NCBI GenBank assembly: GCA_030613785.1
Contig: JAUWLF010000007.1
Coordinates: 4,191-68,190 of the forward strand
From: Chloroflexota bacterium
GTDB lineage: Bacteria; Chloroflexota; Anaerolineae; UBA7937; B3-Chlor
DNA: 64,000 nucleotides
Reading direction: 5' to 3'
Every line of letters begins with the position of its first letter. Positions within the stretch are counted from its first letter, which is position 1. Under the pieces are notes generated by a model, which saw nothing but the letters and a program-made list of their open reading frames with translations, made no database searches and was not told the DNA's origin. This document shows positions 17,514 through 22,314 of this stretch, piece by piece. The position numbers and the translations under genes are program-made.

Positions 17514-18884
17514 ATGGAACAGACCAAGTTCATGTTGGGGGAGGAGGATATCCCCACCCACTGGTACAACATTCAGGCGGATCTGCCTGAGCCCTTGCCC
17601 CCGATCATTCACCCGGGCAGGATGGACCCCGTGACACCAGACGACCTGGCTCCTATCTTCGCCATGGAGCTGATCAAGCAGGAAGTGAGCCAAGAGCGGT
17701 GGATAGAGATCCCAGAGCCGGTGCGCGATGTCTACAAGCTGTGGCGTCCTACCCCCCTCTATCGGGCCCGTCGTTGGGAGCAGGCACTGGGCACGCCTGC
17801 CCGTATCTACTACAAGTGGGAGGGGGTGAGCCCTCCAGGTAGCCATAAGCCCAACACGGCGGTGGCGCAAGCCTATTACAACAAAATGGAGGGTCAAACC
17901 CGCATCACCACCGAGACGGGCGCCGGGCAGTGGGGCAGCGCCCTGTCGTTTGCCTGCAATCTCTTCGACATGGAATGCAAGGTGTACATGGTGGGGATCA
18001 GTTACGACCAGAAGCCCTATCGGAAGAGCATGATTGAGGCCTGGGGCGCTACAATCGTGCGCAGCCCCAGTCTGGAGACCTCCGTCGGGAAGAAGTATCT
18101 GGAAGAAGTTCCCGGGCACACAGGCAGCCTCGGGCTAGCCATAAGCGAGGGGGTGGAGGACGCTGTGACCCACGAGGGCAGCAAGTACGCCCTGGGCAGC
18201 GTCCTCAACCATGTCCTACTGCACCAGACGGTCATCGGGCAGGAGATGAAGAAGCAGTTCGAGTTGGCGGATGACTATCCGGACATGCTGATCGGCTGCA
18301 TCGGTGGCGGCAGCAGCATGGCCGGCTTCTCACTGCCGTGGGTCACGGACAAGATCAAGGATGGGAAAGACCTCCAGTTCATCTGTGTGGAGCCCATGGC
18401 CTCGCCGTCCGTGACCAAGGGGTTGTACAAGTTTGACTTCGGCGATGCGGCCGCAACGACGCCGCTGATGAAGATGTACACCCTGGGCCACAGCTTCATC
18501 CCCGCCCCTATCCACGCCGGCGGGCTGCGCTACCACGGCATGGCGCCCATCATCTGCCACCTCAACGACCTGGGGATCATGGAAACTCTCGCCTTGCACC
18601 AGGTCCCTGTCTTTGACGCGGCTGTGAGTTTCGCCAAGGCCGAGGGCATCATACCTGCTCCGGAGCCATCCCATGCCATCAAGGTGGCTATGGACGAGGC
18701 CCTCAAGTGCAAGGAGACAGGCGAGGAGAAGGTCATCGCCTTCAACCTGTGCGGACATGGTCACTTTGACATGGCGGCGTACGACACCTACTTTGCCGGC
18801 GACTTGGTGAACTACGAGTATCCCGCGGAGAAGGTCGCAGAGGCGCAGAAGGAACTGCCTGAGGTTCCACCAGAGTATCAGTAG
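17514..18884 (+). CDS. trpB2: TrpB2 tryptophan synthase beta-like PLP enzyme
   Basis: [16 protein letters not shown] (PLP Lys), [25 protein letters not shown] and [16 protein letters not shown]. Confidence 0.95.
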
Positions 18885-18920
18885 AAACGGGAGTTCTGTA
18901 TAGACGCTGCTAGTTAGGCC

Positions 18921-18956
18921 AGGGAAGGACGAGGATCAGCGTCCTTGTCCTTCCCT
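18921..18956 (+). terminator. Strong intergenic hairpin between trpB2 and the serine-kinase-like gene
   Basis: AGGGAAGGACGAGGA-loop-TCCTTGTCCTTCCCT; no clear U-tract, so it may be a stabiliser or partial terminator. Confidence 0.5.
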
Positions 18957-18983
18957 TCCAGCCTGCGAGGCTGACGAGAGCTC

Positions 18984-19808: not shown

Positions 19809-19850
19809 AGCCGTTGCAGACCCGGCACCGGTGGAGGGTCTCGTCTGCGA

Positions 19851-21761
19851 TTGCCCTCCGTCGCCGAGTCGCTTGCCGAAAGGATTGACGGATTGAGCGA
19901 ATTGAGACAAGAGGTACTTCTCGGAAACGAGGCTATCGCACGAGGCATAGTGGAGAGTGGATGCCATGTGGTAGCCTCTTATCCAGGTACGCCCAGTTCC
20001 GAGATCTTGCCTGCGGTCGTGAGGTTCAAGAAGGAACTGCGATTGGACACCCACGTAGAGTGGAGTATCAACGAGAAAGTGGCCTACGAGGTGGCGCTGG
20101 CCGCGAGCTACACCGGCAAGAGGGCAGCGGTGATCATGAAACAGGTGGGGCTCAATGTGGCCGCTGACCCGTTGATGAGCTCCGCGTACACAGGTGTCAA
20201 AGGTGGTTTCGTCATCATCTGCTGTGACGACCCTGGTCCTCACTCCTCTCAGACGGAGCAAGATACGCGATTCTTCGCCATGTTCGCTAAGGTGCCCGCT
20301 TTGGATCCTTCCAGCCCGCGAGAGGCCAAGGAGATGGTCAAAGCCGCGTTCGAGCTCTCGGAGAAGCACCGTCTTCCGGTCATCTTGCGTCCCGCGATCC
20401 GCGTTTCCCACGCCAGACAGAACATCACGTTTGCGCCAGTGCCCCAACTGGAGAGGCTCGCTGATTTCGAGAAGGATCCAGGCCGCTGGGCGGCCACGCC
20501 TCGCTTTCGCTACGTGCTGCACAAGGAGCTGAATGAAAAGCTGGCCACAATCGAGGAGGAGTTCGAGGCGTCGGAATTCAACGTACTTCACGAAGGCGAA
20601 GACAATAGACTGGGTTTCATCGCCGCGGGGACCAGCTATGTGGTACTGACTGACACCTTGCGTGAGTTGAGCCTAGAAGGGCGGTTTCCTATTCTGAGAA
20701 TCGGGACTCCCCATCCTCTGCCACAGAGCCTGGCGGCAGACTTCGTCTCCGGGTGCGATCAGGTGCTGGTGTTGGAGGAACCCGACGCCGTTATCGAGTT
20801 GCAGATCCTGGACAAGAGCAAGGTGCTGGGGCGATACAACGGCGTGGTGCCTTCGGCAGGCGAGCTGACGCCGGAAGTGGTGTATCGAATTCTGGCAGTG
20901 CAGATGGAGAAGCTGGGCGTAGATTTGGCTCCCGGGATAGATCCCGATGAGTTGGCGAAGCTAGTCGCTGGCTTGGAGCTTCCGATTCGACGACCACGGT
21001 TGTGCCCCGGCTGTGGGCATCGAGCCGCTTTTTTTGCCATGAAGAGGGCTTTGGGCTCGAAAGCCATCTATCCTGGCGACATTGGGTGCTACACTCTGGG
21101 TCTGAATCTGAAGGCAGTGGACACCTGTCTCGATATGGGAGGGGCTATCACCATCGCCAGTGGATTGTATCAGGCCTACCACCAAGACAGCGAGGACGTG
21201 CCCATCGCCGCCACCATTGGCGATTCCACTTTCCTGCATGCAGGAGTTCCTGCGTTGGCCAGTGCTGTGCACAACCAGGCTCGCTTTGTGCTGGTCATCC
21301 TTGACAACAGCATCACCGCCATGACGGGCATGCAGCCCACGGCAGACTCGGGCATCCTCGCCGACGGCCGGCAGGGCCAAAGGGTGGCCATCAAGGATCT
21401 GGTGCGGGCCTGTGGGGTGAGGTTTGTCGAGGAGATGGATCCCTACCGGGTGAGCGACTTCGAAACGCTGGTCAAGCGCGCGCGGGAGCATACCCGTCAG
21501 CCGGATGGGGCAGTCGCCGTCATCATAGCCAAGCGTCCGTGCGTTCTCTACGATCCCACATCCCTGCAGGAGAATCCGGTGCGGGTAACCGTGACCGAGG
21601 AGTGCGATGGCTGCAAGTACTGTCTGCTTGCCTTCGAGTGTCCGGCTCTGGTGCTGGATGAGGCTCTGAACCGGGTGGAGATTGATCGACGTATCTGTGT
21701 CAACTGCGGAGTGTGTATAGAGGCTTGTCCGAAGGCGTGCATTGTTGAGGCGAAGGAATGA
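19851..21761 (+). CDS. iorA: Indolepyruvate:ferredoxin oxidoreductase alpha subunit
   Basis: LLGNEAIARG, YPGTPSSE, MKQVGLNVAAD, LCPGCGH, GDIGCY, GDSTF..GDN TPP motif and C-terminal 2x[4Fe-4S]. Confidence 0.93.
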   Translation: MPSVAESLAERIDGLSELRQEVLLGNEAIARGIVESGCHVVASYPGTPSSEILPAVVRFKKELRLDTHVEWSINEKVAYEVALAASYTGKRAAVIMKQVGLNVAADPLMSSAYTGVKGGFVIICCDDPGPHSSQTEQDTRFFAMFAKVPALDPSSPREAKEMVKAAFELSEKHRLPVILRPAIRVSHARQNITFAPVPQLERLADFEKDPGRWAATPRFRYVLHKELNEKLATIEEEFEASEFNVLHEGEDNRLGFIAAGTSYVVLTDTLRELSLEGRFPILRIGTPHPLPQSLAADFVSGCDQVLVLEEPDAVIELQILDKSKVLGRYNGVVPSAGELTPEVVYRILAVQMEKLGVDLAPGIDPDELAKLVAGLELPIRRPRLCPGCGHRAAFFAMKRALGSKAIYPGDIGCYTLGLNLKAVDTCLDMGGAITIASGLYQAYHQDSEDVPIAATIGDSTFLHAGVPALASAVHNQARFVLVILDNSITAMTGMQPTADSGILADGRQGQRVAIKDLVRACGVRFVEEMDPYRVSDFETLVKRAREHTRQPDGAVAVIIAKRPCVLYDPTSLQENPVRVTVTEECDGCKYCLLAFECPALVLDEALNRVEIDRRICVNCGVCIEACPKACIVEAKE

Positions 21762-21762
21762 G

Positions 21763-22314
21763 ATGGACTTGAAGATGATCCTGGCTGGTGTGGGAGGACA
21801 GGGGGTCCTCTTCGCCACCAGGGTATTCTCCGAGACGGCGCTGGCCCTAGGCTACGATGTGCTGGGCTCGGAAACCCATGGTATGAGCCAGCGAGGAGGG
21901 TCCGTCGTCTCGCATCTGAAGATAGACGGCTACGAGAGCCCTCTGATTCGGCAGGGCACGGCTGATGTCCTGCTCTCCTTCGATGAGGATGAGGCGTACC
22001 GCACCTTAGCTTTTGTCAGACGCGGGGGCCTCTGCTTCGTTAGCAGTCCTCATGGCGATTTCTGGGACAACGGGGTGAAGGCGTACCTGACCAAGAACAA
22101 CATTGCAGCTCACAGCCTTGCAGCCGACGAGATAGCTCTGGAACTGGGCTCTCCGCGGTCTGCCAACCTGGCTCTCATCGGCTATGCTGTGAGCGTTCCG
22201 GAGGTGCGCTTCGGCTACGATGAGATCAAGGCCACGATTGAGCGCATCAGCCCGTCAAGATTCAAGGAGGTCAACTTGAGAGCTTTTGAGGGCGGCTACG
22301 GGAGGAAACAATGA
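21763..22314 (+). CDS. iorB: Indolepyruvate:ferredoxin oxidoreductase beta subunit
   Basis: GVGGQG and SETHGMSQRGGSV. Confidence 0.93.
   Translation: MDLKMILAGVGGQGVLFATRVFSETALALGYDVLGSETHGMSQRGGSVVSHLKIDGYESPLIRQGTADVLLSFDEDEAYRTLAFVRRGGLCFVSSPHGDFWDNGVKAYLTKNNIAAHSLAADEIALELGSPRSANLALIGYAVSVPEVRFGYDEIKATIERISPSRFKEVNLRAFEGGYGRKQ

Follow-up and report, generated by a model that had tools for sequence, protein, structure and literature searches.

The gene array at 9839-35306 of the window, by which is meant the whole 64,000-nucleotide stretch of Chloroflexota DNA analysed here, probably encodes an oxygen-independent pathway from tryptophan (Trp) through indoleacetyl-coenzyme A (indoleacetyl-CoA) to a 2-aminobenzoyl-CoA-type product, in which TrpB2, a stand-alone TrpB-like enzyme, and a homologue of free serine kinases would form an optional front end for indole. 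Overall, the array is rated as a pathway of the iaa type, known from indoleacetate degradation, with a new entry module derived from biosynthesis; the underlying observation is real and robust. Catabolism is the most economical purpose for this arrangement and is proposed with moderate confidence, since we infer purpose, substrates and flux direction alike. Anabolic and catabolic roles may also be served at once.

The window lies on contig C166 (82.9 kb) of a 4.29-Mb metagenome-assembled genome (MAG) that is 95% complete with 6.6% contamination. The list of open reading frames (ORFs) and the Pfam and NCBIfam profiles define a co-directional array of about 25 kb on the plus strand, with the genes for TrpB2, the kinase homologue, IorA and IorB at 17514-22314 inside it. 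The order of genes is: mutase large subunit, CoA-transferase, hydantoinase A and B, V4R protein, TrpB2, kinase homologue, IorA, IorB, and a molybdenum (Mo) hydroxylase of three subunits; followed by a second CoA-transferase, an aminotransferase, two acyl-CoA dehydrogenases, a second Mo enzyme, and the mutase small subunit. DNA sequencing runs confirm this order, and one 12,131-nt contig (run X1, which may be the source sample) covers 15012-27142. None of the listed holders of the stretch is recorded as RNA; the one run that bears an RNA-Seq label (X20) is assessed as "probably DNA", and its contigs are all short, with 90-99% likeness. A preliminary description, made from the sequence alone, had placed trpB2, a kinase homologue and iorAB here, with an aminotransferase downstream, and profile scans find the genes where it put them.

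TrpB2 (17514..18884, +) is a predicted O-phosphoserine-dependent tryptophan synthase that uses pyridoxal 5'-phosphate (PLP). The protein exceeds the curated cut-offs of NCBIfam NF009057 (707.3 bits; cut-off 366) and TIGR01415 (622.1; cut-off 518.85), reaches only 139.9 bits on the canonical trpB model TIGR00263 (under the cut-off of 392.45), and matches archaeal TrpB2 chains in the Protein Data Bank (PDB; 6hul, E 1.3e-126; 4qys, E 1.2e-106). The stand-alone TrpB2 enzymes of Sulfolobus solfataricus and Thermotoga maritima fall in the same curated family. Its ATG start at 17514 has a ribosome-binding site, AAGGAG, upstream at 17500-17505; the ORF list also holds an earlier GTG at 17490. Consistent with stand-alone status, no TrpA is encoded in the window and none scores over cut-off in the genome. 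TrpB2 enzymes are described as O-phosphoserine-dependent (Busch 2014, as cited in the available part of PMC11917138). By analogy with these characterised members, the enzyme would prefer O-phospho-L-serine to L-serine as the partner of indole, as the adjacent kinase gene and the phosphoglycerate dehydrogenase (PGDH)-like genes of relatives would also suggest.

The neighbouring protein (18984..19808, +) has the SbnI/SerK fold and is a predicted free L-serine kinase that would make O-phosphoserine. A Pfam search at E<=0.001 assigns it to no family. Against the NCBIfam models it scores 69.1 bits for SbnI (E 3.6e-19; cut-off 350) and 64.3 bits for SerK (E 9.1e-18; cut-off 380), and the corresponding matches in the PDB are SbnI 5uje (1.8e-12) and SerK 5x0b (1.1e-8); a profile of 20 family members lifts the SbnI match to E 1.3e-25. 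An AlphaFold2 model built on this 20-member alignment has a mean predicted local distance difference test score of 89.6. When the model is compared with the PDB by Foldseek, full-length SbnI or SerK structures take the first nine places (E 8.7e-18 to 1.5e-14; 244-277 aligned columns; TM-target 0.71-0.79), at 19-23% identity. ParB, Noc and sulfiredoxin (Srx) match only the N-terminal fold of about 80 residues, and no helix-turn-helix is added in the model outside the two-domain fold of SbnI and SerK.

Across the 20 aligned sequences, residues H19-E20, D57-G58..R61 and T218-R219-H220 do not vary; they align with SerK H29-E30, the DG..R nucleotide motif and TRH; the E30A and E30Q mutants of SerK have been crystallised (PDB structure titles). 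Thus, the SbnI/SerK likeness put forward in the preliminary description holds for the full-length fold and the motifs and does not extend to the equivalog cut-offs of 350 and 380, neither of which is reached. Because its scores lie so far under both, the protein is treated as a member of the free-serine-kinase superfamily in a subfamily of its own, orthologous to neither SbnI nor SerK, with predicted kinase activity. The family has 355 database matches at E<=0.001, mostly about 274 residues long, unnamed, and from Chloroflexota where a name is given.

Immediately downstream, the alpha subunit of indolepyruvate:ferredoxin oxidoreductase (IOR), IorA (19851..21761, +), passes the indolepyruvate-specific equivalog cut-off (TIGR03336, 668.7 bits; cut-off 650.9). 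The beta/gamma-type subunit IorB (21742..22314, +), whose gene overlaps iorA by 20 nt, fails its best IOR-beta equivalog (142.5; cut-off 227) but has the Pfam POR domain (PF01558, 107.4 bits). The operon IOR is a dedicated copy, because a second, distant IorAB (35% identity) is encoded elsewhere in the genome, beside an AMP-binding gene. Further along the array, a HisC-family class I/II aminotransferase (27170..28318, +; TIGR01141, 332.2 bits; cut-off 276.55), with in-cluster counterparts in other genomes at 44-52% identity, is a candidate Trp:2-oxoacid aminotransferase. Together, this aminotransferase and IorAB would deliver indoleacetyl-CoA straight from Trp, replacing a CoA ligase; no AMP-forming (AMP-binding) CoA ligase is encoded on the 82.9-kb contig.

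The remainder of the array has the character of an iaa pathway. A hydantoinase-type enzyme and a Mo-hydroxylase are said to act in its earlier steps. In the available part of PMC8360864, the ligase IaaB activates indoleacetate, and the later steps are assigned to the CoA-transferase IaaL, the mutase IaaGH and the decarboxylating dehydrogenase IaaF; the same source gives a GGG motif for all IaaF orthologues where other acyl-CoA dehydrogenases have YEG. Here, one operon holds the non-ligase members of this set, at the level of protein family: a B12-dependent acyl-CoA mutase with an IaaG/H-like large subunit (9839..11581; PF01642, 653 bits; TIGR00641, 644.5; cut-off 303.8) and a B12-binding small subunit (34824..35306; TIGR00640, 151.1; cut-off 57.45); a family III CoA-transferase that is an IaaL-like candidate (11597..12751; PF02515, 428.7 bits); hydantoinase/oxoprolinase A-type (12888..14972; Hydantoinase_A, Hydant_A_N and Hydant_A_C domains; caprolactamase alpha 627 bits, under the cut-off of 1000) and B-type (15011..16729; PF02538, 578.9 bits) subunits; and a Mo-hydroxylase (22311..25980) that is a candidate C2-hydroxylase of indoleacetate or its CoA ester, with FAD (FAD_binding_5/CO_deh_flav_C), 2Fe-2S (Fer2_2/Fer2) and Mo (MoCoBD_1/2 and Ald_Xan_dh_C) subunits. 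Two acyl-CoA dehydrogenases (28377..30714), recognised by their ACAD domains, both carry GGG at the place of YEG (residues 362-364 and 363-365). All of these genes are on the plus strand. Because no IaaB-type ligase and no IaaM-type uptake protein were found, the latter sought as a binding-protein or transporter gene in 9839-35306, the operon is a variant of the iaa cluster and not a strict member.

The proposed pathway would begin with phosphorylation of L-serine by the kinase, at the expense of a nucleotide, to give O-phospho-L-serine, which some relatives would also make from 3-phosphoglycerate by means of a PGDH-like enzyme and a class-V aminotransferase encoded in the cassette. TrpB2 would then condense indole with O-phosphoserine to L-tryptophan and phosphate, a step that would be irreversible because phosphate is released. 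Next, the aminotransferase would convert Trp and a 2-oxoacid to indolepyruvate, from which IorAB would form indoleacetyl-CoA, CO2 and reduced ferredoxin. The remaining chemistry would proceed as in the iaa pathway, through the Mo-hydroxylase, the hydantoinase-type ring opener, a CoA-transferase, the B12 mutase and the IaaF-type decarboxylating dehydrogenase. By this bookkeeping, the serine carbons would largely be regained as CO2 and acetyl-CoA-type units, and activation would cost about one phosphoanhydride bond. A bolder proposal, which we regard as evenly poised, is that such "serine addition" constitutes a new oxygen-independent activation of an unsubstituted N-heteroaromatic: a dedicated TrpB2 paralogue would alkylate C3 of indole with the carbon skeleton of serine, activated by ATP as O-phosphoserine, making Trp the first catabolic intermediate, to be passed through IOR into the iaa route.

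Recurrence in other species ties the front end to the operon. A kinase-anchored scan with one genome per species yielded 67 loci, 66 with a full-length kinase, and so covers those iaa-type clusters that have the kinase; tblastn was relied on in GC-rich loci, where ORF picking chose some antisense frames. The trpB2-kinase adjacency singled out in the preliminary description recurs widely: TrpB2 lies at most 4 kb upstream on the same strand in 35 of the 55 other-species kinase loci with at least 1.5 kb of upstream sequence (within 400 nt in 28), and IorA is immediately downstream in 24 of the 53 with at least 2 kb on that side. When both flanks are available (44 loci), 18 loci have TrpB2 and IorA, nine TrpB2 only, 16 neither and one IorA only, this last (L023) with only 1866 nt upstream. 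Under a slightly different classification, 25 of 66 loci have an IOR context; TrpB2 is present in each of the 19 whose upstream sequence exceeds 2 kb, and the other six have only 34-1866 nt there, one showing a TrpB2 fragment at the contig edge. The TrpB2-kinase-IorA adjacency is far beyond chance.

Five genomes with kinases 39-47% identical to that of the window were followed past the 10-kb flank. Four have the whole array in one direction, in the order TrpB2, kinase, IorA, IorB, Mo-hydroxylase, aminotransferase, CoA-transferase, IaaF-like acyl-CoA dehydrogenase, small (MutS) and large (MutL) mutase subunits, HydA and HydB, with a V4R gene in two (G043, G045); in the fifth, the hydantoinase genes are on a separate 6-kb contig. 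TrpB2 and the kinase thus stand first in some arrays (L045, L052, L061, L067) and in the middle in the window group. As gene order differs between distant and window clusters, the linkage has survived rearrangement. Such comparative evidence makes a functional link between the two-gene cassette and the operon well supported. In one Anaerolineaceae MAG (L031), TrpB2, the kinase and a cluster-type aminotransferase are followed by an ABC transporter of the LivK/H/M/G/F type, and IorA is missing within 10 kb.

Phylogenetic trees of the kinase (66 rows) and of TrpB2 (37 rows), from quick searches and rooted at midpoint, sort largely by context. All 26 IOR-context kinase rows fall in one group of 33, together with six short contigs and L017. 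This group is sister to a 13-row clade of trpS context (support 99, starred), and the cysteine and serine contexts branch outside. Among the TrpB2 rows, one clade of 16 (100, starred) consists only of 12 IOR-context and four short-contig rows. The count of context-label changes on the two trees is 6, against 12.6 and 20.7 after shuffling, and none of 500 shuffles is as low, a contrast that kinship inflates. In one assembly, a cluster copy (L020) coexists with one linked to trpS (L026).

The supply of phosphoserine provides a further line of evidence. A PGDH-like gene lies directly 5' of the kinase in 7 of the 25 IOR-context loci (L020, L021, L022, L024, L036, L023, L061), and in the first five the order is TrpB2, class-V aminotransferase, PGDH-like gene, kinase, IorA. 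Phosphoglycerate dehydrogenase is by far the best NCBIfam match of the PGDH-like gene; the copies in L020 and L036 score 413-432 bits on the catalytic part of TIGR01327, just under the cut-off of 454. The profile models give no assignment for the class-V aminotransferase, which is a candidate phosphoserine aminotransferase from its context only. Two routes to O-phosphoserine beside TrpB2 therefore point to phosphoserine as the co-substrate and to a flux above the need of protein synthesis, and a dedicated supply of this kind fits catabolic flux better than a small anabolic demand for Trp.

Other members of the kinase family stand in settings that share serine or phosphoserine chemistry, which fits a predicted role as phosphoserine supplier. 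Thirteen kinase loci are linked to trpS (TIGR00233, 298 bits; cut-off 177). Others (L040, L043, L046, L050, L059, L069, L072) have as neighbours a PLP enzyme of the cystathionine-beta-synthase (CBS) equivalog and a CysM-like enzyme, along with ThiF/rhodanese and JAB genes. The first five of these loci are sulfur-carrier cysteine/methionine clusters that also hold homoserine dehydrogenase and a fusion of aspartate-semialdehyde dehydrogenase (Asd) with JAB, which suggests that in Chloroflexota a serine kinase supplies phosphoserine-dependent cysteine synthesis. In mycobacteria, the CysM of such sulfur-carrier systems uses O-phosphoserine. In L070 and L071, the kinase accompanies a PGDH-like gene and a class-V aminotransferase, with a serine hydroxymethyltransferase fusion in L070.

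In the sister genus g3 of the same family, the operon occurs without the front end. Each of the five genomes tested has hydantoinase orthologues at 82-84% identity, and three genomes (G002, G006, G010) match the window operon gene for gene at 63-90% protein identity, save that CoA-transferase 1 was not found in two of the three. In all three, IorA directly follows the V4R gene and no cassette intervenes. Neither the kinase nor TrpA was found in G006 and G010; the operon therefore works without the cassette. In G002, the TrpB2-kinase pair is elsewhere in the genome, beside unrelated genes, so adjacency is not obligatory. This comparison shows TrpB2 and the kinase to be an optional cassette of two genes, acquired or lost together. 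Most simply, the cassette would add a second entry substrate, indole, which needs no transporter.

Several findings weigh against a purely catabolic purpose. Profile scans find no trpA or other trp gene besides trpB2 in the window, as the preliminary description had stated, and in the genome TrpA, TrpB1, indole-3-glycerol-phosphate synthase, TrpE-type Chorismate_bind and phosphoribosylanthranilate isomerase have no match over cut-off, leaving TrpB2 as the only TrpB-type enzyme. Control genomes match each of these families at E<=0.001 in 14 of 14 cases (TIGR00263 over cut-off in 13), and tblastn with the TrpA and TrpB1 of L073 likewise finds neither in the window's genome. TrpA scores over cut-off in 0 of 15 genomes of the same family, 1 of 11 of the same order and 6 of 14 of the same class; its absence from all 15 relatives marks a lineage trait and not an assembly gap. 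Because the family is without TrpA and the operon TrpB2 is the organism's only TrpB-type enzyme, an anabolic role is inseparable here from a catabolic one. The TrpB2-kinase pair is found in a biosynthetic context in 11 loci, in the order trpS-TrpB2-kinase, often followed by a thymidylate synthase gene. The IOR-linked kinase group has an SH-aLRT support of 89 in a quick search and is not a starred branch, and the window's own TrpB2 falls in the other half of its tree, mixed with trpS-linked copies, L041 and L061. The closest TrpB2 in G002 (87% identity) is away from the iaa-type operon of that genome; the beta-oxidation genes expected past the IaaF step are not in the operon; and the kinase homologue lies far under the curated SbnI and SerK cut-offs. 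Moreover, a SerK-like protein is reported to bind CTP and not ATP (available part of PMC12704722), so that the kinase homologue may use another phosphate donor or even work in another direction, and GapMind 2026, in its available part, discusses a serine kinase that acts in serine synthesis. Of the self-contained module proposed in the preliminary description, running from O-phosphoserine through Trp to indoleacetate, the protein identities and the synteny are strongly backed; its catabolic purpose is the inferred part, tempered by the trp-less family, the trpS-linked pairs and the optional cassette.

These points bear most directly on salvage or pool protection, in which scavenged indole would be made into Trp for protein, or the pair in the operon would top up the Trp pool during degradation, with little or no indole carbon entering the iaa route. 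We consider this explanation unlikely, though it deserves weight. Its strongest point is the missing trp operon of the genome and family; the trpS-TrpB2-kinase loci and L073, in which trpB1...trpA-trpS precede the kinase, are consistent with it, and indole salvage is the role traditionally given to TrpB2 (Hettwer & Sterner 2002, as cited in the available part of PMC11917138). However, TrpA is present in 6 of the 10 other genomes that carry the cluster version, so the cassette is not needed there to make Trp. The assembly with both a trpS-linked and a cluster-linked pair, and the separation of cluster-linked kinases from the trpS-linked clade, likewise argue against salvage, and the PGDH-like and class-V aminotransferase genes would represent an oversupply for the rarest amino acid. 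Pool protection is not required either, as the degradative operons of G006 and G010 occur without the kinase and TrpA; overall, 6 of the 15 same-family genomes have neither. The family, like most of its order, is thus without detected Trp biosynthesis, yet the operon is predicted to degrade Trp. The PLP enzyme of L073, an Anaerolineae MAG, is of TrpB1 size and not TrpB2, and this context is unexplained by the pairing of phosphoserine with TrpB2.

Where Trp is fermented, indole is common, and it acts on membranes. One possibility would be that the cassette detoxifies indole by removing it as Trp, its linkage to the operon reflecting a shared inducer and not a pathway. The biochemistry would be identical to that of the catabolic proposal, and a cassette that is optional in close relatives and sits elsewhere in G002 (L017) resembles an accessory fitness trait. 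Detoxification is nevertheless improbable: IorA starts at most 400 nt from the end of the kinase gene in 24 of the 25 IOR-context loci, with a gap of 4 nt in L045 and an overlap in L025; phosphoserine-synthesis genes of its own would not be needed; and the Trp formed must go somewhere, the next enzymes being encoded immediately downstream.

A different chemistry is more doubtful still. TrpB2 might use a nucleophile other than indole, such as a substituted indole or a pathway intermediate, or the kinase homologue might be a regulator or an enzyme that turns phosphoserine into serine; either way, the operon would receive something other than indole-derived Trp. The low SbnI and SerK scores leave room for this, as does the NCBIfam label of SbnI as a bifunctional regulator/synthase. 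A distant serine-kinase-like family has been proposed as a replacement for phosphoserine phosphatase (available part of PMC13759103), and the grouping of a PGDH-like gene, a class-V aminotransferase and the kinase (L070, L020 type) would also fit serine synthesis. Against this, TrpB2 is well over its curated cut-offs, its matches to solved structures of such enzymes have E values from 1e-106 to 1e-126, the downstream IorA passes its indolepyruvate-specific cut-off, the catalytic His-Glu and DG..R motifs are invariant, and the kinase model has no helix-turn-helix. That the cassette is a mobile or neutral insertion, its place between V4R and iorA an accident of ancestry, is very improbable: its presence or absence among close relatives with otherwise identical operons would fit, but the linkage is kept at only 39-50% kinase identity to the window's and in two gene orders, and context labels cluster on both trees beyond the shuffles, even if kinship inflates the figure.

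The catabolic reading can be set beside known systems. As in the iaa pathway of Aromatoleum aromaticum and Azoarcus evansii (Ebenau-Jehle 2012; Schuhle 2016, 2021), the mutase, hydantoinase-type enzyme, Mo-hydroxylase, family III CoA-transferase and GGG acyl-CoA dehydrogenase are together in one operon. In contrast, the operon here is without the IaaB-type ligase and the IaaM-type binding protein (roles as given in the available part of PMC8360864); entry is by the aminotransferase and IorAB, with TrpB2 and the kinase homologue in front; a 4-hydroxybenzoyl-CoA-reductase-like Mo enzyme is added; and beta-oxidation genes are absent.

For the front end itself, the closest parallel is staphyloferrin B synthesis in Staphylococcus aureus, where SbnI, a free serine kinase of ParB/Srx fold, feeds O-phosphoserine to a neighbouring PLP beta-replacement enzyme, SbnA. 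SbnI is the best sequence and fold match of the window's kinase homologue, yet the identity is only 19-23% and the score lies far under the SbnI cut-off; the consumer there is SbnA in siderophore synthesis, whereas here it would be TrpB2 in a catabolic context. The ADP-dependent SerK of Thermococcus kodakarensis shares the two-domain fold and the His-Glu, DG..R and TRH motifs. According to the available part of PMC5120207, SerK feeds a phosphoserine-using enzyme for cysteine synthesis, a role paralleled by the cysteine-cluster context of other members of the window's family, and that study found no clear bacterial homologues, in contrast to the 355 matches reported here. The available parts of GapMind 2026 and of a ParB-fold survey mention SbnI and SerK and, within those parts, not TrpB2. 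In the literature searched, no paper pairs "TrpB2" with "serine kinase" and no description of the module was found; key subscription papers lie outside this coverage, and an earlier mention is possible. With that scope, neither a phosphoserine-making partner nor a catabolic destination of the product has been described for TrpB2.

The known anaerobic route for indole proceeds through oxindole and isatin to anthranilate in Desulfobacterium indolicum and in denitrifying and methanogenic consortia, and the 2018 review that describes it gives no other anaerobic route and calls the mechanism of anaerobic indole degradation a "black box", with no genes assigned (available part of PMC6221969). Both that route and the one proposed here are oxygen-independent, hydroxylate C2 with water-derived oxygen and end at an anthranilate-type compound. 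The proposed route would differ in that C3 is first alkylated with the serine side chain, C2 is hydroxylated on indoleacetate or indoleacetyl-CoA, and the two extra carbons leave as CO2 and acetyl-CoA-type units.

The remaining features of the region concern regulation and accessory functions. A promoter-like site upstream of the first operon gene (TTGACT-17-TATAAT; 9763..9791, +) has 11 of 12 consensus matches; it is a consensus match only, as promoter-like sites in the region show no excess over shuffles (6 against 6.6), and terminator-site counts are likewise no higher than in shuffles. At the upstream edge of the cassette, a 271-nt spacer (17243..17513, +) contains, besides the ribosome-binding site of TrpB2, an extended -10-like motif, TGGTATAAT, at 17310-17318, just 5' of the cassette and again a consensus match only. 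In a cassette-less operon of the sister genus (L102), the gap between V4R and IorA is 83 nt against 271 nt for this spacer, and the cassette may have carried in its own promoter. An Rfam search of 9300-36000 gave a single chance-level match (E 0.87), with no T-box or riboswitch before TrpB2. The stand-alone V4R/XylR_N-like small-molecule-binding protein (16739..17242, +; V4R, 55.9 bits) is 167 residues long, has no DNA-binding domain, and could serve as a sensor or as an accessory subunit that binds a ligand; its gene adjoins HydB in L097, L098, L099, L100/L101, L102 and L104/L105.

Downstream of the Mo-hydroxylase, a second family III CoA-transferase (25977..27170, +; PF02515, 254.5 bits) is 56-62% identical to the copies in distant clusters. 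The second Mo enzyme, 4-hydroxybenzoyl-CoA-reductase-like with three subunits (30730..34487, +), has the HcrB, HcrC and HcrA equivalogs as its best NCBIfam matches, all under cut-off (TIGR03195, 301; TIGR03193, 192; TIGR03194, 700.6 bits); the FAD_binding_5 match of its 329-residue FAD subunit is stretched across residues 5-215. The enzyme is retained in the cassette-less operons of the sister genus, and tblastn did not find a second Mo set in the distant clusters. A possible substrate of the enzyme is a later aromatic CoA ester, from which it might, for instance, remove the amino or a hydroxy group. Just past the operon end, on the minus strand (35361-37875), a PAS-histidine kinase and an OmpR-type response regulator are possible regulators. 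Farther along (42303-53285, +), glutamate dehydrogenase and response regulator genes are followed by NuoE-like, NuoF-like, 2Fe-2S/4Fe-4S, HdrA-like with MvhD, FrhB-like, GXGXG and glutamate-synthase-domain genes, an array with the appearance of a large flavin/FeS complex for electron transfer, linked to glutamate synthase. As for tryptophanase, Beta_elim_lyase matches in the genome occur only in frames of 345-350 residues, which we judge to be of threonine-aldolase size; no match is of tryptophanase size, in a search that is not specific.

Among the main products of anaerobic protein decay is indole, which also acts as a signalling molecule. If the proposed pathway is correct, the first genes would be assigned to anaerobic indole mineralisation, in widespread sediment Anaerolineae, by a route distinct from that through oxindole and isatin and traceable by marker genes in Chloroflexota of marine sediments and the subsurface. 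Operons that are otherwise identical, with and without the cassette, offer a natural comparison. The TrpB2 family, long a puzzle, and the bacterial SerK/SbnI-like kinases would gain a joint physiological role, and a large bacterial branch of serine kinases would be recognised as providing phosphoserine for several PLP enzymes, namely TrpB2 and those of the CysM/CBS-like type.

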